Of a stretch of 45,719 nt of DNA, positions 4,370 through 45,719 are shown one piece after another. A model generated the notes under the pieces. That model worked only from the letters and a program-made list of their open reading frames with translations. It had not been told where the DNA came from and did not search any database. Both the position numbers and the translations under genes were made by a program. This DNA comes from Candidatus Nealsonbacteria bacterium (GTDB lineage Bacteria; Patescibacteriota; Minisyncoccia; Minisyncoccales; RBG-13-42-11): the NCBI GenBank assembly GCA_019923655.1, contig JAHXGL010000003.1, positions 1-45,719 of the forward strand, read 5' to 3'. Positions within the stretch are counted from its first letter, which is position 1. Each line of letters starts with the position of its first letter.

Positions 4370-5206
4370 CTACTCCGCGAATAATTTCCTGGCGTTGGTC
4401 GTGGTGCATTCTGATATTTTGGTATAGTTTGTCTTTTTTATTTTAGCGATTTTAGTCGCTATGTGTTTCAGATAGAGGGGTTCATTGCGACCTTTTATCT
4501 GCGGAGGAGTCAAATAAGGACAATCGGTTTCAATTAAGATTTTATCCAGGGGCATTTTTTCAATAGTTTCGTTCCATAAATTCATCTTGAAAATCAAGCC
4601 GTTAAAACCTAAATAAAGCCCAACCTCCATATATTGTTTCGCTTCTTCCCATGTTCCGGTAAAACAATGGATCACGCCTCTGGCTTTAGAATCTTGAATC
4701 TGAAATCTAGAATATAGAACTTCAAGAAGGTCGCTATGCGCAAAACGGCAGTGAAAAATTATTGGCAAATTTAATTCTTCTGCGAGCTTCATTTGCTGAA
4801 TAAGAACTTGTTTTTGTTTCTCTTTGAATTGCTGAACTCTTGTTTTTGTTTTTGGCTTCCAGTAATAATCCAAGCCGATTTCGCCAATTGCTTTTACTTT
4901 AGTAGAAAGGGCTAATTCTTTGTATTTGTTATAGTCAAATTTTTCCTCTTGAGTCTTAAATTGAATTTCTTCCGGATCAATTTTTATTTTCACCAAGCCG
5001 GTTTCCAAATGAATAGGATGAAGCCCGATAGCGGCATAAACTCCTTTTTCGTATTTCTCTGCGATTTCTATTGCTCTCTTGCTGGTAGTATATTGCGAAC
5101 CAACATTGAACATCCAAACATCATTGGCAAGGGATCGTTGAATTACCTCATCAAAATCATCTTTATAATCATTAAAATTTATATGAGCATGCGTGTCTAT
5201 CAACAT
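4370..5206 (-). CDS. TatD-family metal-dependent hydrolase
   Basis: N-terminal DTHAH motif and TIM-barrel TatD-like pattern, 278 aa. Confidence 0.85.
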   Translation of the reverse strand: MLIDTHAHINFNDYKDDFDEVIQRSLANDVWMFNVGSQYTTSKRAIEIAEKYEKGVYAAIGLHPIHLETGLVKIKIDPEEIQFKTQEEKFDYNKYKELALSTKVKAIGEIGLDYYWKPKTKTRVQQFKEKQKQVLIQQMKLAEELNLPIIFHCRFAHSDLLEVLYSRFQIQDSKARGVIHCFTGTWEEAKQYMEVGLYLGFNGLIFKMNLWNETIEKMPLDKILIETDCPYLTPPQIKGRNEPLYLKHIATKIAKIKKTNYTKISECTTTNARKLFAE

Positions 5207-8146: not shown

Positions 8147-9160
8147 TTACCTTAGATATTTTTGTTTAGCAAGAGAATGTTCTCTTAAACTTACGCTAAA
8201 TATGGTCTGGCTTTCAGGGGTAGAGAGGAAAAACAGATACTCGCTTGCTTGAGGATGCACTGCCGCTATTATACTTTCAAGTCCGGGATTGGAAATCGGG
8301 CCTATTGGCAGACCTGGATAAATATAAGTATTATAAGGCGACTCAATTTCCTTGCCTCTGCCAATCTCTCTTCTCATTTCTTCAAAAGTCCAACCATCTT
8401 TTTCCCGTAAAATGTAAGCAATTGTGGCGCAGCTTTGCAATCGTTTATTGATATTAATTCTTTCCCAGAAAATTCCTGAAACAATTTTTTTATCTTGAAA
8501 CCCTCTTACCTCTTTTTCAAGCAAAGAAGCCATAATAACAATGTCAAAAACCCCCTTCTCTTGCCGGGTAATTTCTTTAACTAATTCTGAAGTAAGTTTT
8601 TTATCAAAGTTGCTTAGTATTTCTCTAATAATTTCTTTGGTAGTAGCTAAATAAAAAAACTGATAAGTGTCAGGGAATAAAAATCCCTGAAGCCCTCTTT
8701 GTTTTGGGACATCCCTTAAAAAATCAAACTCGTCCTGAAAATCAGAAACTTTGAACTGGGCAAAATTCATTTCCCTATCAAATGCTCTAGAAAATCTTTT
8801 TTCTATCTCTTGAAGGCGAAATCCTTCGGGAATAGTTACTTTTATTTTCTTCACCTCGCCAGCAGCCAATTTCATTATAATCTCTGAAACACTCATTGCC
8901 GGACTTAAAAGGTAGGCGCCGGCCTGAAGCTTTTTAAAATTATTGGTAAAAATTCCATAGACATTAAAATACAAACTATCTTTAATCAGCCCTTGTTTTT
9001 CCAGATTGTTGCTAATTTCTAAAAAACCTTGGCCAAATTCAATTAAAAACAATTCTTCCCTTATTGCTTCCCTGTCTTTTGGCAAATAAATGCCAGACCA
9101 AAGAGAAAATCCTAAACCAAGAAAGCAAAAAAATATTAAAAAAATTAAAAAATTCTTCAT
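8147..9160 (-). CDS. mltG: Endolytic murein transglycosylase MltG (YceG-like)
   Basis: N-terminal TM segment followed by YceG-like domain features, 337 aa. A 4-nt ATGA overlap links it to pcm. Confidence 0.85.
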   Translation of the reverse strand: MKNFLIFLIFFCFLGLGFSLWSGIYLPKDREAIREELFLIEFGQGFLEISNNLEKQGLIKDSLYFNVYGIFTNNFKKLQAGAYLLSPAMSVSEIIMKLAAGEVKKIKVTIPEGFRLQEIEKRFSRAFDREMNFAQFKVSDFQDEFDFLRDVPKQRGLQGFLFPDTYQFFYLATTKEIIREILSNFDKKLTSELVKEITRQEKGVFDIVIMASLLEKEVRGFQDKKIVSGIFWERININKRLQSCATIAYILREKDGWTFEEMRREIGRGKEIESPYNTYIYPGLPIGPISNPGLESIIAAVHPQASEYLFFLSTPESQTIFSVSLREHSLAKQKYLR

Positions 9161-9864
9161 CGATTAATTAAAGGCACAAAGGCAAAGCCGGGATATTCAT
9201 ATTCCTCAAATTTTGTTTCTCCTTTTTTAATAAAAAGCCAAATTGATGAGCCAATCGGCGCCACAATTCTGCCGCCAATTTTCAATTGCTCTTTCCAGGC
9301 TCTTGGCGCAGTTTCAGCCGAAGCTGAAACCAAGATCTTATCAAAAGGCGCTTCTTCGGCATAACCCTTTGACCCATCAGCGCAAATACAATCCACTATC
9401 CTTTTTTCCATAAAATTGTATTTGGCCACATTTTGTTCTCCGATTTTTTTTAATTCAAGGATAATTTCTATTGCAAGAATTTTACCGTTTAAGTCTTTAA
9501 GTTTTGAATTTTGCTTATTTGAATTTGAAATTTGTTTGTCCTTTGGAATTTGCAATTTGGAATTTCCCTTCTGGCTCACAATGTGAGCTAAAAGGGCTGT
9601 TGTCCAGCCAGAACCAAACCCAATATCTAAAATTTTATCCCCGGGTTCTGGTTGAAGCTGTTCTAGCATAAAAGCAACCACTAATGGTTGGGAAATGGTC
9701 TGGCCAAAACCGATTGGCAAGGCATTATTCAGCTCTGCAAGATTCTCTGCGTCCTTTGGCATAAAGTCCTTTCTCTTAATCTTTTTGAAAGCTGTAATTA
9801 TTCTCGGAGTTTTTAACCAGCCCTCTTTAACTAATTCTTCAATAAGCGCCATAATTTTTGCCAA
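9157..9864 (-). CDS. pcm: Protein-L-isoaspartate O-methyltransferase with a low-complexity insert
   Basis: Pcm-like sequence (GQTISQP, SAM motif LDIGFGSGW). It is interrupted by the insert KGNSKLQIPKDKQISNSNKQNSKLKDLNGK. Confidence 0.8.
   Translation of the reverse strand: MAKIMALIEELVKEGWLKTPRIITAFKKIKRKDFMPKDAENLAELNNALPIGFGQTISQPLVVAFMLEQLQPEPGDKILDIGFGSGWTTALLAHIVSQKGNSKLQIPKDKQISNSNKQNSKLKDLNGKILAIEIILELKKIGEQNVAKYNFMEKRIVDCICADGSKGYAEEAPFDKILVSASAETAPRAWKEQLKIGGRIVAPIGSSIWLFIKKGETKFEEYEYPGFAFVPLINR
9500..9567 (-). repeat. Degenerate TTTGAA(T/A)-type short tandem repeats inside pcm
   Basis: The tract gttttgaattttgcttatttgaatttgaaatttg...ggaatttgcaatttggaattt encodes the Pcm insert. Confidence 0.7.
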
Positions 9865-14140: not shown

Positions 14141-14148
14141 CTTTTTAT
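13993..14148 (-). repeat. 96-bp tandem duplication covering the rpsJ start region and the tuf stop codon
   Basis: 13993-14052 is identical (60/60) to 14089-14148. A third partial copy (about 28 nt) lies at 14059-14086. Confidence 0.95.
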
Positions 14149-15344
14149 GTTAATACTTTAGTCACTACTCCGGCTCCCACTGTCCTTCCTCCTTCTCTAA
14201 TGGCAAATCTCTGCTTCTCTTCCATAGCAATCGGCACAATCAACTTTATTTTCAGGTTTACTGTATCACCGGGCATAACCATTTCTGTGCCTTCTGGCAA
14301 GGAAACATTTCCGGTAACATCAGTTGTTCTAAAATAAAGCTGGGGCTTATAACCGGTAAAAAATGGAGTGTGGCGACCACCTTCTTCTTTGGTTAAAATA
14401 TAAGTTTCGCTTTCAAATTCAATATGCGGCGTAATTGAACCTGGTTTAGCTAAAACTTGGCCTCTTTCAATATCCTCTTTTTTCAATCCGCGAAGCAAAA
14501 CGCCGACATTATCTCCGGCCCGGCCTTCGTCTAAAATTTTATTGAACATTTCCATACTCACGGCAACTGTTTTGGTTGTCGGCTTAACCCCAACAACCTC
14601 TACCTCCTCATTGGCCCGAACAATTCCCCTCTCAACTCTTCCAGTCGCTACAGTGCCTCGACCAGCAATAGAAAAAACATCTTCAACAGCCATTAAAAAA
14701 GGCTTGTCTATCTCCCGAATTGGTTCCGGGATAAAACTATCTACTGCTTTGACTAATTCTAAAATTGGTTTTATTGCTTCATCGTCAATAGAATTCGCTT
14801 CAAGGGCTTTCAGGGCCGAACCTCGGATAATCGGTGTTTCATCTCCTGGAAATTTATATTTATTCAATAATTCTCTTATTTCCGATTCTACCAAATCAAT
14901 AATATCCGGATCGCTAACCAAGTCGCATTTATTAAGAAAAACCACAATTGAAGGCAAGCCAACCTGGCGCGCCAAAAGAATATGTTCTCTTGTTTGGGGC
15001 ATTGGGCCATCAGACGCTGAAACAACCAAAATTGCTCCATCCATCTGCGCCGCGCCGGTAATCATATTTTTAATATAGTCAGCGTGGCCCGGACAGTCAA
15101 TCCAGGCGTAATGCCTTTTAGTAGAATCAAACTCAACATGAGTAACATTAATCGTTAACCCGCGAGCTTTTTCTTCCGGAGCAGAATCAATTTGGTCTAC
15201 TGATTTTTCTGTTGCTTTAAAGCCGGCTAATTTCTGAACCTTAAGAACCGCTGCCGTTAAAGTAGTTTTTCCGTGGTCAACATGGCCAATAGAGCCAATA
15301 TTAAGATGGGGTTTTTCCCTTATAAATTTTTCTTTTTCCGCCAT
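14145..15344 (-). CDS. tuf: Elongation factor Tu
   Basis: [15 protein letters not shown] and NKCD motifs. The canonical start [17 protein letters not shown] is at 15344. The longer ORF reaching 15395 begins at a TTG inside the hairpin repeats. Confidence 0.97.
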
Positions 15345-15351
15345 AATTTTA

Positions 15352-15489
15352 TAGTCTTCCAAATCCCTTTGGGATTTGGAAACGAAGTCTTCCAAATCCC
15401 CTGAAAGGATTTGGAAACTTTAGTCTTCCAAATCCCTTTGGGATTTGGAAACGAAGTCTTCCAAATCCTATTTATTTAGGATTTCAGAA
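15352..15489 (-). repeat. Array of four UUCCAAAUCC...GGAUUUGGAA stem-loops in the fusA-tuf spacer
   Basis: Stems at 15357-66/15371-81, 15390-99/15407-16, 15426-35/15440-50 and 15459-69/15478-89 (the last imperfect). 15352-15399 is identical to 15421-15468 (48/48, period 69). Confidence 0.9.
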
Positions 15490-15540: not shown

Positions 15541-17658
15541 TTATCTTCTCTTTCCTTCAATGATTTCCTGAATAATATTAGCTGGCGCCTCTTCATAGCT
15601 GTTAAATTCCATTGTAAATATTCCCCTGCCTTCTGTCAAGCTCCGCAAGCTGGTGGCATAGCCAAACATTTCCGCTAAAGGCACTTTAGCATTTATGACT
15701 TTCATTTGCAAGCGGTCAAAAGTTTCTTCAATCTTTCCTCTTCTGGCTGAAAGGTCGCCAATAACATCGCCGAAAAAAACATCTGGCATCACTACTTCTA
15801 ATTTCATCATTGGCTCTAATATAATTGGTTCGGCTTTTTTGACTGCTTCTTGAAAAGCTATTGAGCCGGCAATCTTAAAAGCGATTTCTGAAGAATCCAC
15901 TTCATGAAAAGAACCATCATAAAGAGTGGCTGAAATATCCACCACTGGATAACCAGCCAAAATTCCTTTATCCATTGCCTCTTTTATTCCTTTATTCACC
16001 GCTGGAATAAATTCTTTGGGAATATCTCCGCCTTTTATCTCGTCAATAAACTCATACCCTTCTCCCCTTGCTTTTGGCTCTATTCTTAACAAGACATGGC
16101 CATACTGTCCTCTGCCGCCTGACTGCTTGATGTATTTTCCTTCAGCCTTGCTTTCTATTTTAATTGTTTCTTTATAAGCAACCTGGGGCCTGCCAACATT
16201 GGCGCCTACCTTAAACTCTCTTTTCATTCTATCAGTAATAATCTCTAAATGCAACTCTCCCATTCCAGAGATAATTGTTTCTCCTGTTTCTAAGTCTGAT
16301 TTAACTCTGAAAGTCGGGTCCTCGTCCATTAATCTTTTCAAGGCAGTTCCCATTTTCTCTTGGTCCTGCTTGGTCTTGGGCTCTATCCTAATGGCAATAA
16401 CCGGCTCTGGGAAAACAATTTTTTCCAGAACAATCGGCTCTTTTTCATCACAAAGAGTATGGCCGGTAGAACTTGCTTTTAGCCCAACCGTAGCGGCAAT
16501 ATCGCCGGTAAAAACTTGCTCCACATCCTCTCGTTCCGCGGCGTGCATTCTTAAAATTCTGCCAATTCTTTCTTTGTTACCGGTTGTTGAATTTAAAACA
16601 TAAGAGCCTTTTGCAAGGCAACCAGAATAGACTCGGAAATAGGTTAAAGTACCAACATAGGGATCAGACGCGATCTTAAAAATTAAAGCGGAAAATGCTT
16701 GCTTATCATCTGCTTTTCTCTCTATTTCTAAACCTTTTTTCGGATCAAAGCCCTTTATTGCAGGCATATCAATCGGACTGGGAAGATATTCAATTATTCC
16801 ATCTAACAATAAATGGATTCCTTTGTTTTTCAGGGCAGAACCGCAAAATATTGGAATTAATTTATAAGCAAGGCAGGCTTTTCTTAATCCGTTTTTTAAT
16901 TCATTAACAGAAGGCTCTTGTCCGTCTAAATGTTTTTCCAATAAATCCTGGTCTTCAGCAATAATTTTCTCTACTAATTTTTCGCGGCTTTGTTTTGCTT
17001 TTTCTAACAGCTCCTTTGAAATTCCCGCTCCTTCTAAATAGTCCTCGTCTATGGGTATAATCTTCATATTCTGCCCAAAATCTCCCTCAAACCTATTTGC
17101 CTTCATTTCCAATAAATCAATTATTCCTTCAAATTCAGCCTCTTGGCCAATTGGCAATTGAACAGCCACCGCGTTAGAAGAAAGTTTTTCCTGAATTGAC
17201 GCTAAGCTTTTTTCAAAACAAGCGCCGATTCTGTCCATTTTGTTAATAAAACAAATTCTGGGCACCTTAAATTTATCTGCCTGATGCCAGACTGTTTCTG
17301 ATTGCGGTTCTACTCCGGCAACACCGTCAAAAACCACGACCGCGCCGTCTAAAACTCTTAAAGAGCGTTGAACCTCTGCAGTAAAATCAATATGACCAGG
17401 CGTATCAATAATATTTATCCGATACTCATTTCCAGCTAATGTCCAAAAACAAGTGGTGGCAGCTGAAGTAATGGTAATTCCCCTTTCTTTTTCCTGCTCC
17501 ATCCAATCCATAATTGCTTTGCCGTCGTGAACTTCGCCAATTTTATGAGAGACTCCAGTATAAAATAAAATCCGCTCACTAACCGTTGTTTTACCGGCAT
17601 CAATATGAGCAATAATGCCAATATCGCGAGTTTTTTCAATTGGATATTTCCTAAACAT
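15541..17658 (-). CDS. fusA: Elongation factor G
   Basis: 705 aa. [14 protein letters not shown] and NKMD motifs, with EF-G domains II-V recognisable. Confidence 0.97.
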
Positions 17659-18058: not shown

Positions 18059-18595
18059 TTACAGCACTTGTAAATCAATCAGGGCTTTTTCGTAAATTAA
18101 CATTGCTTTCCTGGTTTCGTCTAAGCTTAATACATAGTCAGGATTATGAACAATATTATTCCGGATTTGATGAACTTCTCTTATCTGCTCAACATTGGGA
18201 AGAGTAATCTGATCTAATTGCTTTAATTTTTTTTCTAATGTCTCTCCGGGAAAACCTTTTTCTTCTAAAACATCTCCTAATAGGCTATCAGCTTCAATCA
18301 GGGCTAATTTATATTCAGATTCTTTCCCTGTTTCTATTCTGGATTGAATTTTCTTCCAGGTCTTTACATTCTTTTTAACTCCAAGCGGCCGATAAGTTAA
18401 GATCTCTATCATATCTTCTATTAAAAGAGCATTCAGCCAGGAACTCTTAGATAGAAAAAAAATAATAGCGCCTATAAATAATAAGGTAACCAAGATAAAG
18501 ATAAGTTTTAGAATTAGAACATATTCCGCAAATGGCGAAGGCAGAACAGTAATAAGCGAAATTATTTCATTTATGTCTATATTAAAAATTCTCAT
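18059..18595 (-). CDS. Membrane-anchored hypothetical protein
   Basis: 178 aa. One or two N-terminal TM segments are followed by a helical soluble domain. It overlaps the gatA stop by 14 nt. No family recognised. Confidence 0.55.
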   Translation of the reverse strand: MRIFNIDINEIISLITVLPSPFAEYVLILKLIFILVTLLFIGAIIFFLSKSSWLNALLIEDMIEILTYRPLGVKKNVKTWKKIQSRIETGKESEYKLALIEADSLLGDVLEEKGFPGETLEKKLKQLDQITLPNVEQIREVHQIRNNIVHNPDYVLSLDETRKAMLIYEKALIDLQVL

Positions 18596-20003
18596 TTAAG
18601 CGAGCAATTTCAAAAATTTTATCTTCTTCAAACCATTTGCCAATAATTTGCAAGCCAACCGGTAAATCCTTGACTTTGCCTATTGGCAGAGAAAGAGCTG
18701 GCAAGCCCGTTAAATTAACAGAAGCTGTATAAATATCAACCAGATACATAGAAAGAGGGTCCTTAATTTTTTCTCCAATTTTAAATGGTAAAAATGGTGA
18801 AACCGGAGCCATAATAATATCAACTTGTTTAAAAACTTTGGTAAAATCGGCTCTGACTAATTTCCTTACCTTTTGCGCTTTTAAGTAATATGCCTCATAA
18901 TAACCGGCTGACAAAGCATAGGTACCCAACATTATTCTTCTTTTCACTTCCGAGCCAAACCCTTCTTGCCTGCTATCTAAATAAACGCCTAATAAATCCT
19001 TTTCTTTTTTGGCTGAAAGCCCGTATTTTATTCCATCATATCTTGCCAAGTTTGCCGAGGCTTCCGAAGGATTAATAATATAGTAAGCTGGCAGAGCATA
19101 CTCTGTATGGGGCAAGCTTACTTGTTCAATCTTGGCTCCCATATCTTCATATTTTTTAATTGCCTTTCTTACCAGTTTTTCAATTTCAGGATCAATGCCT
19201 TTCACAAAATACTGGCTTGGCACTCCAATTTTTATGTTTTGAATTTTGAATCTTGAATCTTGAATCTTGAATCTTTTCTCTACACTTGTAGAGTCCATCT
19301 CATCTTTGCCAGATATGGCTTCAAATACTATTTTAGCGTCTTCTATTGTTTTTGTGATTGGACCAATCTGGTCTAAAGAAGAAGCAAAAGCAATCAAGCC
19401 ATACCGGGAAACCGCTCCATAGGTAGGTTTTAACCCGACTACTCCGCAAAAACAAGAAGGCAGGCGAACAGAACCACCGGTATCAGAACCCAAGGAATAG
19501 ATTGCCATATCAGCCGCTATTGCCGCAGCAGACCCCCCAGAAGAGCCGCCTGGTACCCGAGTTAAATCATAGGGATTTTTAGTCGGACCAAAAGCTGAAT
19601 TTTCAGTTGAAGAACCCATAGCAAATTCATCCATATTTGTTTTCCCTAAAATCACTGCTCCTTTCTCTTTAAGTTTCTTTGTTACAGTAGCATCATAAGG
19701 AGCAATATAATTTTCCAGAATTTTAGAACCAGCAGTACATTTGAGATTTTCAACCAAAATATTATCTTTTATTGCGCAAGGAAGACCGGCTAAAATTGAA
19801 ATTTCCCTGCCAGTTGAAATTAAACTATCAACTTTCTTTGCTTGAACTAAAGCTGATTTGGCAGCAATGGTCAAAAAAGCGAAAATCTCTTTGTTTTTTT
19901 CTTTAATTTTGTCTAAATAAGCCTGACAAAGTTCTGTTGCTGAAAATTCCTTTTTTATTAAACCCTGATGCGCTTGAGTAATAGTTAGATCTGTTAATTC
20001 CAT
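18582..20003 (-). CDS. gatA: Asp/Glu-tRNA amidotransferase subunit A
   Basis: 473 aa. Amidase signature present (GGSSGGSAAA, GSDTGGSVR). Confidence 0.95.
   Translation of the reverse strand: MELTDLTITQAHQGLIKKEFSATELCQAYLDKIKEKNKEIFAFLTIAAKSALVQAKKVDSLISTGREISILAGLPCAIKDNILVENLKCTAGSKILENYIAPYDATVTKKLKEKGAVILGKTNMDEFAMGSSTENSAFGPTKNPYDLTRVPGGSSGGSAAAIAADMAIYSLGSDTGGSVRLPSCFCGVVGLKPTYGAVSRYGLIAFASSLDQIGPITKTIEDAKIVFEAISGKDEMDSTSVEKRFKIQDSRFKIQNIKIGVPSQYFVKGIDPEIEKLVRKAIKKYEDMGAKIEQVSLPHTEYALPAYYIINPSEASANLARYDGIKYGLSAKKEKDLLGVYLDSRQEGFGSEVKRRIMLGTYALSAGYYEAYYLKAQKVRKLVRADFTKVFKQVDIIMAPVSPFLPFKIGEKIKDPLSMYLVDIYTASVNLTGLPALSLPIGKVKDLPVGLQIIGKWFEEDKIFEIARLNENF
19237..19271 (-). repeat. Heptanucleotide tandem repeat (T[T/C]TTGAA x5) inside gatA
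   Basis: ttttgaa ttttgaa tcttgaa tcttgaa tcttgaa read directly. It encodes RFKIQDSRFKIQNIK. Confidence 0.9.
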
Positions 20004-20010
20004 ATATATT

Positions 20011-20245
20011 AGGGTAAAGTCTGAAAAACGGACCTATTTGTTCGTAATTTAGCTTAAAGCATTAGAAGCTCAGCAATCAAGTTTCAAGTCACCGGCTGTT
20101 AAAATCCCAGCGAGATTTTACAGCCTGCGTTCTCGGCTTGTTGTCCCTCACTTTGTTCGGGAACCATGCCAACAAGCCTGCGAAAGCTGCCTTGAAACTT
20201 ATTGCCTCACTTCTGAAATCGGTCCGGGAAATCGAACTTTACCCT
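20011..20245. repeat. 235-nt structured, multi-copy intergenic element (MITE-like element or novel structured RNA) between gatC and gatA
   Basis: 10-bp terminal inverted repeat AGGGTAAAGT/ACTTTACCCT flanked by ATATT on both sides. Internal pairings: 20029-34/20221-26, about 30 nt of 20059-88 with 20191-220, hairpin 20094-106/20113-124, hairpin 20135-43/20170-78. A second copy lies at 1-56. Confidence 0.8.
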
Positions 20246-20248
20246 ATA

Positions 20249-20545
20249 TTATAAGATTGATTTTACTCTCAAATATTTGTTTTTTGTTTTTGGCGCTAAA
20301 TTTAATAGTTTTTCCCTATCTGTTAAAGTTTTAAAGGGAGCAGAGCTTTGTTCGTCTTTCCTCATTACATTTTCAAGCTTAATTAAATGGCTAGTTGACT
20401 CTACTTTTGAAATATTAACCTCTTTCAATTTTTCTATGTAATCCAAAATCTTCGAAAGCTCCCTCCGGAATTTCTCAATCTCTTTCTCGGTTAATCCAAG
20501 CCTAGCCAATTTTGCGATATGTTTTACTTCTTTTTTTTTGATCAT
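20249..20545 (-). CDS. gatC: Asp/Glu-tRNA amidotransferase subunit C
   Basis: 98 aa with a GatC-like N-terminus (VKHIAKLARLGLTEKEIEKF). Confidence 0.9.
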   Translation of the reverse strand: MIKKKEVKHIAKLARLGLTEKEIEKFRRELSKILDYIEKLKEVNISKVESTSHLIKLENVMRKDEQSSAPFKTLTDREKLLNLAPKTKNKYLRVKSIL

Positions 20546-20572
20546 TGAAAATTGATTGAAAATTGAAAATTC
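20544..20572. repeat. ATTGAAA heptamer repeats in the mreB-gatC spacer
   Basis: The tract attgaaaattgattgaaaattgaaaatt. It uses the same TTGAAA-type unit as the coding-region repeats. Confidence 0.7.
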
Positions 20573-20574
20573 TA

Positions 20575-21627
20575 TTACTTTGGTGGTTCCAAATATTCTG
20601 TTTCCACCAAAACCTCTTTTAGCTGATCAATACTTTCCAGAATCATTCCCGCCCCCCTAACCACGGCAGTCATTGGGTCTTCAATAGTTTTAACGGGAAT
20701 TTTTGTTTCTTTCTTAAGTAAAATATCCAGACCTTTTAGAAGCGAACCGCCCCCAACCAATTGAATCCCTGAAACCATTATGTCGGCTAGTAATTCCGGG
20801 GGAGTTTCTTCAATTGCTGTTTTAATTTCAACAACAATCTGTTTCACTGATTTCTCCAAAGCTTTCCTAATATCTTCATCAGAAACTAAAACCTCTTCAG
20901 GGAGACCGGTTATTAAGTTTCTTCCTCTTATCGGGAATTGTTTTTTTTCTTTTAACGGATATGCTGACCCGATTTCAATTTTGGCTTTCTCGGCTGTCCG
21001 CTCGCCAATTAATAATTTATACTCGCTCTGAGCAAATTGAATTATATCTTCATTAAGTTTGTCGCCAGCCACCCTTAGACTTTTAGCTAAGACTATTCCT
21101 CCTAAGGAAATTATTGCTATCTCAGTAGTTCCTCCGCCAATATCAACGATAAAATTCCCTCCTGGATTCTGAACAGGCAAACGAGCGCCAATAGCTGCCG
21201 CCATTGGCTCTTCAACTAAGAAAACTTCTCGGGCGCCGGCATTTTTAGCTGCGTCAACAACCGCTCTTTTTTCCACTTCAGTCACGCCCCAGGGTATTCC
21301 AATAATCACCCGCGGTCCCGGGGTTAAAAAAAATTTTCTTTTTTGCGCTTTCTCAATAAAATATCTAAGCATTTGTTCGGTTACTTCAAAGTCAGAAATC
21401 ACGCCTGAAACCAATGGCCGGGTCGCGACAATATAAGCCGGGGTCCGGCCAACCATTCTTTTCGCCTCATTGCCAATAGCTAGAACCTGACCGGTCTTTT
21501 TGTTTACAGCCACCACTGAAGGCTCGGTAAGGACTATTCCCCGACCCCGAACATAAACCAAAGAATTGGCTGTGCCCAGGTCAATGGCAATGTCTTCTGA
21601 AATATATGATAGAAGTTTGCTTAACAT
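20575..21627 (-). CDS. mreB: Rod shape-determining protein MreB (paralog 1)
   Basis: 350 aa. Actin-fold phosphate motifs present (DLGTANS, DIGGGTTE, GGGSLL). Confidence 0.93.
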   Translation of the reverse strand: MLSKLLSYISEDIAIDLGTANSLVYVRGRGIVLTEPSVVAVNKKTGQVLAIGNEAKRMVGRTPAYIVATRPLVSGVISDFEVTEQMLRYFIEKAQKRKFFLTPGPRVIIGIPWGVTEVEKRAVVDAAKNAGAREVFLVEEPMAAAIGARLPVQNPGGNFIVDIGGGTTEIAIISLGGIVLAKSLRVAGDKLNEDIIQFAQSEYKLLIGERTAEKAKIEIGSAYPLKEKKQFPIRGRNLITGLPEEVLVSDEDIRKALEKSVKQIVVEIKTAIEETPPELLADIMVSGIQLVGGGSLLKGLDILLKKETKIPVKTIEDPMTAVVRGAGMILESIDQLKEVLVETEYLEPPK

Positions 21628-29984: not shown

Positions 29985-29990
29985 ATTGTA

Positions 29991-30024
29991 ATTCTACCAA
30001 AAAACCGCCTCAATAAAAAGGCGA
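29991..30024 (-). promoter_or_regulatory. Hairpin plus U-run plus TGGTAGAAT promoter cassette, copy a
   Basis: In minus sense: cgcct-loop-aggcg hairpin, TTTTTT, TGGTAGAAT, then 6 nt to the ATG at 29984. Confidence 0.65.
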
Positions 30025-30109
30025 TTTTGTCGGCTCGCTTGGTGGACAGCTTCCGCGATGGGCTTTTTTGTTTTGACCAAAAATTCAAAAACGTCCCCAA
30101 TTTCGTCCC

Positions 30110-31422: not shown

Positions 31423-31431
31423 TGCAAGTTC

Positions 31432-31460
31432 ATTCTACCAAAAAACCGCCTCCTTGGCGA
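31432..31460 (-). promoter_or_regulatory. Hairpin plus U-run plus TGGTAGAAT promoter cassette, copy b; it also serves as the obg terminator
   Basis: In minus sense: tcgccaaggaggcgg hairpin, TTTTTT, TGGTAGAAT, then 9 nt to the ATG at 31422. It lies 8 nt after the obg stop. Confidence 0.7.
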
Positions 31461-31467
31461 TTAAAAA

Positions 31468-32472
31468 TTATGATTTTTGTTCTGTTTTTTCCAAAATTAA
31501 ATCATTAAGTATTTTTTTGACAAGCTTGATGCTGTCCCAATCAAATATAGAAATCGGAGTTGTATTTTTATTTAATTCTTCAAGATTTTCTACAACCTCA
31601 CGGGCAATATCGGGTGAAACCACGTCTTTTTTGCTTACCAATACATATTCTGGTTTTTCCAGAAGCAATTTATTATATGCCCCTAATTCGCTGCGCACCG
31701 TTTTATAATCCGCCACCGGATTAGCAGAATCTGCGGCAACAAAATGAAACAAGGTCTTTGTTCGCTCTATATGCCGTAAAAATTTAATGCCGAGACCTTT
31801 ACCCATAGACGCGCCCTCAATAAGCCCGGGAATATCAGCGAGTATTAAATCGTAATACACGCCCAAATTCGGCTCTAAAGTCGTGAACGGATAATTTGCC
31901 ACTTTGCTTTTGGCATTAGTCAACTCGTTAAGCAAACTTGATTTTCCGACATTGGGCGTTCCTACAAACCCTACGTCGGCAATCAGCTTTAATTCAAAAT
32001 GGATTTCCAGCGATTCTCCCGGCCTCCCGTATTCAAATTCTTTCGGCGTTGTATTGGTTGCTGAACGAAAATGAAAATTTCCCCTTCCTCCGCGTCCGCC
32101 GCGGACAATTACTGCCCGCTGGCCGATTTTAGTTATCTCAACATCTTCACCCGTGTTTAAATTATGCGCTACTGTTCCGACGGGAACAAATAAAATCAAA
32201 TCGTCAGCGTTATTGCCGTCGCGAAATTGCGAACGGCCGTCCTGTCCGTCTTTAGCTTTAATTTCTTTTTTAAAACGGAATTGATTTAGCGCGCTTAAAT
32301 CAGAAACTCCTTCAATATAAATACTGCCGCCCTTACCGCCGCCACCGCCAACCGGACCCAAAGCCATCATGTTTTTATTAAACGCCACTGTTCCTTTTCC
32401 GCCGCTTCCGGCTGTTACTTTTATTTTTACATCATCAATAAGCATAAAGGTTTTGTACAACTTGACCGGCAT
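31468..32472 (-). CDS. obg: GTPase Obg/CgtA
   Basis: Glycine-rich Obg fold (AGSGGKG, GGGGGKGG), with G1 GTPNVGKSS and G3 DIPG motifs. The family-typical start MLIDDVKI is at 32445; the upstream ATG at 32472 adds 9 aa. Confidence 0.93.
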   Translation of the reverse strand: MPVKLYKTFMLIDDVKIKVTAGSGGKGTVAFNKNMMALGPVGGGGGKGGSIYIEGVSDLSALNQFRFKKEIKAKDGQDGRSQFRDGNNADDLILFVPVGTVAHNLNTGEDVEITKIGQRAVIVRGGRGGRGNFHFRSATNTTPKEFEYGRPGESLEIHFELKLIADVGFVGTPNVGKSSLLNELTNAKSKVANYPFTTLEPNLGVYYDLILADIPGLIEGASMGKGLGIKFLRHIERTKTLFHFVAADSANPVADYKTVRSELGAYNKLLLEKPEYVLVSKKDVVSPDIAREVVENLEELNKNTTPISIFDWDSIKLVKKILNDLILEKTEQKS

Positions 32473-33270: not shown

Positions 33271-33278
33271 ATTGTTTT

Positions 33279-33308
33279 ATTCTACCAAAAAATCGCGATT
33301 TTGGCGAC
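33279..33308 (-). promoter_or_regulatory. Hairpin plus U-run plus TGGTAGAAT promoter cassette, copy c (degenerate hairpin)
   Basis: In minus sense: gtcgccaaaatcgcga, TTTTTT, GGTAGAAT, then 8 nt to the ATG at 33270. Confidence 0.55.
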
Positions 33309-33337
33309 TCTAATTTCAGCCTAAATTTTATCAAAAA

Positions 33338-39796: not shown

Positions 39797-39802
39797 ACCT
39801 TT

Positions 39803-39832
39803 ATTCTACCAAAAAATCGCCTCCTTGGCGAC
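39803..39832 (-). promoter_or_regulatory. Hairpin plus U-run plus TGGTAGAAT promoter cassette, copy d
   Basis: In minus sense: gtcgccaaggaggcga hairpin, TTTTTT, GGTAGAAT, then 6 nt to the ATG at 39796. No upstream minus-strand gene needs a terminator here. Confidence 0.65.
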
Positions 39833-39911
39833 TTTTTTCAGCTTCCGGCTAAATTTTGATTATTTTTTATCTTTAGTAAATTATAAGTAATCCCAGGCCC
39901 TTGGGTATAAG

Positions 39912-42851: not shown

Positions 42852-42941
42852 CATCAGCCAATTTTGATAACCTGTCTTGCGAAACACTTATTTTGTTTCT
42901 GTCTTTTTTAATATTACTTTGTATCCAGAACAAAATCTTTA

Positions 42942-43050
42942 CCCCGTAGTGAACTGAAGGTTCTACTACTGGGGCCTGCCCCGTAGTGAACCGAAGGTTC
43001 CACTACGGGGGCTTGCCCCGTAGTGAACGCAAAGCGTTCTACTGCTGGGG
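42942..43050. repeat. Three tandem GC-rich hairpins (CCCCGTAGTGAAC-loop-GTTCNACTACNGGGG)
   Basis: Units at 42942-74, 42979-43010 and 43016-50. In minus sense the middle unit is a perfect stem capped by C(UUCG)G. The array lies between the convergent rnhB and the 217-aa gene. Confidence 0.9.
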
Positions 43051-43100
43051 TTCCGCCGCCGCCGCCGCAATTTTTCGTACCAGCGAAGCTGGCGCACCGC
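43051..43100. repeat. 50-bp direct repeat, left copy
   Basis: ttccgccgccgccgccgcaatttttcgtaccagcgaagctggcgcaccgc matches 45661-45710 at 49/50 positions (43079 a vs 45689 g). Confidence 0.95.
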
Positions 43101-43738
43101 TATTTCAAATTTGGATACAGGGCCCACAACATCGAATCCAGTAATTTTGTATTTGAGATGTATTTATTTTGCCAAAGAAATTTATTCAGAATTGCTTTAT
43201 TTTGCAACTCGTGCCTGACACTGTTTATAAAGTCTTTAATTTCAACATCCGCCAACAATATTTTAAACTTTTCTTTTAATGTTTTATAAATATCAATCCT
43301 ATCTCTAATTTTTTCTTCAAACGAATCTGGATACTTTTGAGGCGGCAATCCAAGAACACGAGCAATATTGCCGTCATAAATTGGTAATTTTTCGTTTATG
43401 GTATGCAATAGCTTTGTTCCAAAACTTAAAAATATTCTGTGGCTATTTTTATACCCAGGTACTCTGTATAACGCCTTGAGAATTTTTTCTAAATCAGTTT
43501 CTCTTGATGAAAGGAGTTTAAAAAATTCTTTTTTTTGTGGCTTAGTTAACCCTCTCGCACCGTTCATAATATAAAATCCACAAAAAACCCTTTCAAATTT
43601 ATCATCTATATTATTTGATAAATATTTCTCTCTAATCAAAAAATAACCTCTAAAATGCCGCCAATTATTGACAGACAAAGTATCGATGATTTCTACTTTA
43701 TGTTTTTTAAGTCGTTCTATTGTTTTCTTTATTAACAT
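43100..43738 (-). CDS. Uncharacterised 212-aa soluble protein, last gene of the Fic cassette
   Basis: Long ORF. ATG at 43738; the track start at 43753 is a TTG. It is helical and K/L/I-rich (SFGTKLLHTINEKLPIYDGNIARVLGL). No family recognised. Confidence 0.6.
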   Translation of the reverse strand: MLIKKTIERLKKHKVEIIDTLSVNNWRHFRGYFLIREKYLSNNIDDKFERVFCGFYIMNGARGLTKPQKKEFFKLLSSRETDLEKILKALYRVPGYKNSHRIFLSFGTKLLHTINEKLPIYDGNIARVLGLPPQKYPDSFEEKIRDRIDIYKTLKEKFKILLADVEIKDFINSVRHELQNKAILNKFLWQNKYISNTKLLDSMLWALYPNLK

Positions 43739-45475: not shown

Positions 45476-45510
45476 TCAAAGAAAATCCGGACGCTGACTT
45501 TTGATAATTT

Positions 45511-45660
45511 CCGCTCGGGCGGGCCCCATAGCAAAGCCTTCGGCTTGCTACGGGGCAAGCAAAAAGCAAGAATTTTTGTTTACCCCGTAGGGAAACGAAG
45601 TTTCTCCTTCGGGGCCCGCCCTCGCTTGCCCGTCCGTAGCCGAAAGGCGAAGGAGGGCTT
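45511..45660. repeat. GC-rich hairpin cluster (same CCCCGTAG...CTACGGGG family), right flank
   Basis: Hairpins at 45524-55 (ccccatagcaaagcc-ttcg-gcttgctacgggg), 45583-614 and 45618-58 (gccctc...gagggc). Confidence 0.8.
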
Positions 45661-45710
45661 TTCCGCCGCCGCCGCCGCAATTTTTCGTGCCAGCGAAGCT
45701 GGCGCACCGC
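45661..45710. repeat. 50-bp direct repeat, right copy
   Basis: 49/50 identical to 43051-43100. Confidence 0.95.
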
Positions 45711-45719
45711 ATTTTATTT

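Follow-up and report, generated by a model that had tools for sequence, protein, structure and literature searches.

Organization of the gatC-gatA locus

The window analysed here comprises 45,719 nucleotides (positions 1 to 45,719 of contig JAHXGL010000003.1, Candidatus Nealsonbacteria), and the relatives of its leucyl-tRNA synthetase place the host among Parcubacteria/Patescibacteria; no exact record of this synthetase was found, the nearest relatives being at most 71% identical. Within the window, gatC (20249-20545, − strand; 98 aa; Pfam GatC) and gatA (18582-20003, − strand; 473 aa, amidase; Pfam Amidase) are separated by a non-coding element of 233 bp (20012-20244). As described earlier, the element is more GC-rich than its surroundings (45.5% versus 35.8% for the whole window). 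Its longest open reading frame encodes 38 aa; a 64-aa stop-free translated frame has no protein relatives, and none of the ORFs of 38, 28, and 22 aa has an exact match in the protein collection searched.

The boundaries of the element were set by its terminal inverted repeats (TIRs), the flanks of other copies, and the points at which contigs of other copies leave the window sequence. In the metagenome scaffold L013, C precedes another left end (..TCTAAC|GGGTAAAG), and A follows the CCC end of a second copy in the window (CCC|ATTTATA); the element therefore extends from GGG at 20012 to CCC at 20244. The preliminary description had recognized the element but assigned it 235 nt (20011-20245), an extent that the flanks of the other copies correct. 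The inverted repeat that it reported, AGGGTAAAGT/ACTTTACCCT, is exact. The TIRs begin with the exact pair GGGTAAAGT/ACTTTACCC and extend imperfectly to ~24 bp, including the blocks CGGACC and GGTCCG (20029-34 and 20221-26), which follow 8-9 nt beyond GGGTAAAGT and ACTTTACCC. The left TIR, GGGTAAAGTCTGAAAAACGGACC(T), occupies 20012-20035 (+ strand) and the right TIR, GGGTAAAGTTCGATTTCCCGGACC as read on the − strand, occupies 20221-20244; both were delineated by pattern matches, and the right one also by the terminal helix of the predicted fold. The pattern GGGTAAAGTN{8,11}CGGACC has three matches in the window, where none is expected. Between the two conserved end blocks lies a run that is rich in A on the left and in T on the right, both in this element and in the two further elements described below; the ends are therefore asymmetric and the element oriented.

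A direct repeat, TATATTA, flanks the element with a 7/7 match (20005-20011 and 20245-20251), and its right copy contains the gatC stop codon (20249-20251; TAA on the − strand). The target-site duplication had been taken to be the 5-bp ATATT; once the GGG...CCC boundaries are fixed, it becomes a perfect 7-bp repeat, a 5-bp duplication being rejected on the C|GGG junction in L013 and the CCC|A junction in the second copy. A TA duplication of the IS630/Tc1-like kind was likewise rejected, as the bases beside GGG and CCC are not consistently TA.

The ATG of gatA lies 8 nt past the element end. A Shine-Dalgarno sequence is indeed absent in front of it, as had been noted, but this absence is genome-wide, an SD-like motif being found upstream of only 2 of the 48 ORFs in the window, so that gatA is not special in this respect; the proposal that gatA must use the element for want of such a motif fails, because the genome almost never uses one. 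An extended −10 box stands 6-7 nt ahead of many genes, which suggests leaderless mRNAs. The window also carries a repeated module, GAGGCGGTTTTTTGGTAGAAT, composed of a hairpin and a T-run followed by an extended −10 box and ending 6-7 nt before ATG starts (~29988-30028, 31429-31469, 33276-33316, and 39800-39840), and TGNTANAAT occurs 29 times against 13.5 expected.

Empty site in a near-identical relative

The corresponding locus was found without the element in a near-identical relative, L012 (BBPF01000020.1), which was reached through a GatA cluster mate. In L012 only 2 nt separate gatC from gatA (..CTA TAA TA ATG GAA.., reading gatC-TAA-TA-ATG-gatA), and the 7-bp repeat is represented by a single similar form. 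The window sequence from which 20012-20251 is removed aligns collinearly with L012, with 100% identity on both sides over hundreds of bases, except for a patch at the junction. L012 represents an empty site with otherwise identical flanks. The diverged patch of ~190 nt is centred on the junction (window ~19940-20005 and 20250-20370 versus L012 2150-2310), consists of substitutions and indels, and spans the final ~35 codons of gatC and the initial ~20 codons of gatA; it could be a recombination tract that brought in the insertion allele, or a strain mixture in the assembly.

The empty-site sequence is also present within L001, a scaffold that contains Ns. Around this locus the groundwater metagenome scaffolds at NCBI are chimeras (L001, 1417-1490 and 1645-1648; L013, 1157-1162 and ~1330-1500), in which the occupied allele is fused with the empty one and with a copy from a different site, and the repeat thereby corrupts scaffolding.

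Copies of the element and their flanks

The near-identical second copy reported at 1-56 of the window comprises the right-hand 56 bp of the element in the same orientation, is cut by the contig start, and matches the gatC-gatA copy at 55 of 56 positions. It lies 7 nt downstream of the stop codon (64-66) of leuS, the leucyl-tRNA synthetase gene. Another element end was located in L013 beside the 3' end of mreB. A low-complexity tract in L013 (1210-1330) directly adjoins another copy of the element; it is similar to GAATCTTGAAT-type repeats of the window (19229-19286, 4685-4713, and 9496-9534), which occur both inside gatA, where they encode FKIQDSRFKIQN, and in intergenic DNA.

The abundance of the element was estimated by aligning the contigs of four groundwater runs to window positions 19400-20900, with the summed contig depth as the measure. 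In the DNA run X1, the element had a summed depth of 12,600-43,800, compared with 157-330 for its flanks; the values in run X3 were 5,400-30,700 and 380-475, respectively, and a similar excess was seen in X5-X8. Overall, the depth of the element in the groundwater runs is 80-280 times that of the flanks. Many contigs, including those of X5-X8, leave the element at 20004-20007 and 20246-20253 and continue into differing, unrelated sequences, and TATATTA or a similar 7-mer flanks many of the copies. Together with the copy at 1-56 and the end in L013, these loose ends with different flanks show that the element is present in many copies. Among the 91 contigs from X1, 51 are at least 99% alike, their sole common difference from the window being T20063>C; this near-identity fits recent amplification. 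The ends of the element are 3-8 times deeper than its middle, and subfamilies with other interiors therefore exist. With only 1.2 copies of the element in the 45.7 kb of the window, a large part of the depth may stem from other members of the community. The repeat also leaves its mark on assemblies: Logan contigs carrying this gatC all end 21-24 nt inside the element, the short-read contigs L002-L004 break within it, and the window contig itself starts within a copy. In run X9, a bovine gut metagenome, a single 213-nt contig of depth 2 covers window positions 20150-20246, the right half of the element, with 95-99% identity and then continues into a different flank; it may be library carry-over or a real distant occurrence.

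The empty site and the scattered copies bear directly on the possibility that the spacer is a lineage-specific cis-regulatory RNA of the gatCA operon (a riboregulator or attenuator) whose palindromic ends arose by chance. Its position between co-transcribed cistrons, its strong fold, and its GC content relative to the surroundings would suit such a role. However, it is absent from the relative whose flanking genes are 100% identical, the same sequence recurs downstream of leuS and at many other loci, a target-site duplication is present, and the lack of a Shine-Dalgarno sequence before gatA is genome-wide. The empty site and the copies at unrelated loci effectively refute this explanation, and we regard its probability as close to negligible.

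The flanks also inform on how the element may have moved. One could envisage that a tyrosine or serine recombinase of the site-specific kind moves it as a small integrative element, in which case ACTTTACCC-TATATTA-GGGTAAAGT, the sequence created when the ends join, would be a lox/dif-like site whose crossover region is 7 bp long. Two inverted arms of ~13 bp around a 7-bp spacer do resemble recombinase core sites, and the TATATTA flank is common to many copies; this recurrence calls for a strong target preference and counts against the reading of the element as a miniature inverted-repeat transposable element (MITE). Other copies, however, are flanked by ATTTATA, TTCTAAC, TAATATA, TATCAAA, and TACTATT, and one further element by TATTTTA, with no identical core; moreover, the empty site has no arm-like sequences, and the circle junctions of DDE insertion sequences share the same geometry. 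We therefore consider a recombinase-moved element very improbable.

Two other kinds of repeat were observed in the window. A second, unrelated family consists of GC-rich hairpin arrays (CCCCGTAGTGAAC..GTTCNACTACNGGGG, then TTCCGCCGCCGCCGCCGCAATTTTTCGTNCCAGCGAAGCTGGCGCACCGC) at two intergenic sites (42930-43105 and 45510-45719), the second at the contig end. In addition, region 15352-15468 contains an exact 48-nt duplication with the palindrome TTCCAAATCCCTTTGGGATTTGGAA; the duplication lies around the start of the ORF at 14145-15395 and in the intergenic DNA separating this ORF from the EF-G gene (15541-17658).

Elements sharing only the ends, and comparison with known systems

A pattern scan of JGI metagenomes for the ends, which, like the scan of genomes, took in only elements 225-260 bp long, yielded two further elements, namely L005 (Ga0129299_1002973: 8980-9207; 228 bp, a length imposed by the search pattern) and one locus sampled four times (L006-L009; e.g. 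Ga0209225_1002437). Both carry the same ~24-bp ends as the window element, AGGGTAAAGTYYRA..GGACC on both sides, whereas neither the sequence nor the predicted fold of their interiors is related to it. A perfect 7-bp duplication of its own (TATTTTA, 7/7) flanks L005, and the flanks of L006 match at 5 of 7 positions.

In the species-representative genomes scanned for paired ends no element was detected, the window's own record evidently lying outside that set. Scanning viral contigs for the ends gave only two chance matches, inside phage coding sequence, and scanning them for hairpin 1 (see below) gave none; blastn against plasmids and phages gave no match to the element. No transposase gene was found in the window or among the neighbour genes of L005 and L006, nor was an autonomous partner with the same ends found in the window, near L005 and L006, or in viral contigs. 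A literature search on MITEs in CPR bacteria and on the end sequence returned no relevant report.

Bacterial MITEs such as Correia (Neisseria), RUP (Streptococcus pneumoniae), and ERIC/IRU (enterobacteria) are non-coding and ~100-300 bp long. The element resembles Correia, RUP, and ERIC in being short and non-coding, with TIRs and a target-site duplication, and in having many near-identical copies at intergenic or AT-rich sites; their frequent co-transcription with neighbour genes as a long hairpin is a further likeness. Correia and RUP duplicate TA, whereas this element duplicates 7 bp, and it also differs from the three families in its end sequences, in its branched three-way fold as opposed to a simple hairpin, and in its host, a reduced-genome CPR/Parcubacteria organism. 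GGG-initiated ends, an AT-rich target, and the character of a non-coding miniature derivative are shared with Tn3-derived TIMEs; however, TIMEs have ~38-bp GGGG ends and a 5-bp duplication, as against ~24-bp GGG ends and 7 bp here, and this assignment was rejected. Like IS200/IS605-derived PATEs and REP/REPIN sequences, the element is highly structured, repeated, intergenic, and non-coding. Those elements are recognized by subterminal hairpins and a fixed 4-5-nt target on one side, have neither TIR nor duplication, and depend on HUH/Y1 enzymes, which move them in single-stranded form; a PATE or REPIN of the IS200/IS605 type was rejected on the true TIRs and the 7-bp duplication. The IS1595/IS1016 group, with GGG ends and 7-9-bp duplications, offers a lead only as to the family.

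Predicted fold and transcription of the interior

The minimum free energy (MFE) of the predicted fold is −96.6 kcal/mol for the − strand (z −7.5) and −85.3 kcal/mol for the + strand (z −6.8), and none of 200 shuffled sequences folded as well as the element. The terminal helix in the MFE fold has 12 pairs across 13 nt, followed by CGGACC/GGTCCG. The long outer stem that had been recognized by eye is present, with a computed pairing of 20062-20091 (left arm) with 20188-20216 (right arm) plus 20029-34 with 20221-26; T20063 is private to the window copy, and the C found in most copies makes a perfect pair with G20215. The two inner hairpins and the junction were also recovered, the predicted fold being a three-way junction that is equally good on both strands. 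Inner hairpin 1 (20094-20125; 12-14 bp, arms 20094-20106/20114-20125) is the most conserved part of the element in distant relatives, and inner hairpin 2 (20127-20187; arms 20127-20143/20170-20187) has a variable tip (20144-20162).

In agreement with the earlier statement that no known ncRNA motif is present, a search of Rfam 15 at the gathering score found only six tRNAs elsewhere in the window, and at E values up to 10 over 19900-20350 only two chance matches. Metatranscriptome contigs of 180 nt cover the element. In the two samples with both libraries, the RNA:DNA depth ratio was 0.02-0.08 over the element and 0.27-0.53 over the flanks (X2/X1), and 0.01-0.04 and 0.10-0.13, respectively (X4/X3), that is, 3-24 times below the flanking genes, although a ratio from contig depth is crude and the libraries carry no strand information. 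On the + strand, antisense to gatC, an extended −10-like sequence, TGTTAAAAT, lies in hairpin 1 (20097-20105), and the sense-strand 3' end of the element reads GGUCCG-UUUUU.

Since the copies are nearly identical, covariation is not measurable within the family, and more distant variants come from run X10, a different groundwater study, in which low-depth contigs of 80-90% identity aligned only over the interior (20068-20212). In hairpin 1 of these relatives, TA>CC at 20100-01 is accompanied by the compensatory TA>GG at 20119-20; in hairpin 2, 20141 T>C is accompanied by 20172 A>G, which keeps the pairing, these being a handful of positions taken from contig tables rather than from sequences. 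Three variants carry other hairpins in place of the tip of hairpin 2, and the −10-like box is not conserved, the relatives reading TGTCCAAAT in its place.

These observations could be taken to mean that the element, while mobile, has a functional interior, the branched core being a conserved, structure-dependent module carried on transposon ends in CPR bacteria, either a structured RNA or a single-stranded-DNA module (or an RNA cofactor); a regulatory or terminator RNA, an antisense promoter cassette, and a protein-binding hairpin needed for transposition are examples. The retention of hairpins 1 and 2 by compensatory changes in the X10 relatives, which a wholly passive interior need not display, the exchange of the hairpin 2 tip for three different hairpins, the metatranscriptome contigs, the −10-like sequence, and the U-rich 3' end speak for such a module. 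Against it, the ends are shared by elements whose interiors are unrelated, the X10 variant has lost the −10-like box, the flanking genes have the higher RNA:DNA ratio, Rfam gives no match, and the readable variant positions are few. The compensatory changes may reflect selection for structure or template-switch mutation, which is typical of quasi-palindromes and by which adjacent double changes can arise in one event, with no selection. On balance, a functional interior appears unlikely. If real, it would constitute a new class of MITE-borne structured nucleic acid, and could act in cis on operons as a terminator, processing site, or antisense promoter, or could instead serve as a single-stranded-DNA or RNA cofactor of its own transposition.

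Discussion

The gatC-gatA spacer is very probably a MITE, a 233-bp non-autonomous DNA transposon without coding capacity. The preliminary description had offered an MITE-like insertion and an undescribed structured RNA side by side. The former is borne out by direct observations, namely the paired ends, the 7-bp duplication, the empty site, the many copies with varied flanks, and the occurrence of the same ends on elements with unrelated interiors. A structured RNA as the primary reading is disfavoured by the lack of an Rfam match, by folding on both strands, and by the low RNA:DNA ratio, and is further weakened because elements bearing these ends differ in their interiors. The spacer is best viewed not as a new RNA gene but as an ordinary type of mobile repeat whose host, a groundwater CPR bacterium, is unusual.

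The origin of the locus may be pictured as follows. A transposase supplied in trans, most likely of the DDE type and encoded by a full-length insertion sequence with the same ~24-bp ends, would move the element, and insertion at the AT-rich junction between the gatC stop and the gatA start of this Parcubacteria (CPR) bacterium would have duplicated the 7 bp TATATTA. The duplication would have restored both the gatC stop at one end of the element and, at the opposite end, the AT-rich run that leads into the gatA ATG; with these restored, and with translation starting without a Shine-Dalgarno sequence, the operon could tolerate the insertion. The multi-stem fold would be a by-product of the palindromic DNA architecture. 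Co-transcription would place a large hairpin between the cistrons, with GGUCCG-UUUUU at its end on the sense strand; this hairpin could bring about attenuation or processing of the transcript, and the insertion might influence the expression of gatA.

Although the insertion comes between two cistrons that are coupled in translation and belong to an essential operon for tRNA amidation, the occupied allele is the one assembled in samples from 2017 to 2024; the locus thus provides a natural test of SD-less initiation against a 233-nt structured spacer. It also carries a warning for annotation, in that a GC-rich, strongly folding intergenic region of an AT-rich genome can be a MITE rather than an RNA gene, and MITE repeats would explain why assemblies break at these points. 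The small genomes of CPR/Patescibacteria are generally considered to contain little mobile DNA. In several metagenomes from deep groundwater, k-mer depth is dominated by this recently amplified family of MITEs, which would point to active transposition in these communities.
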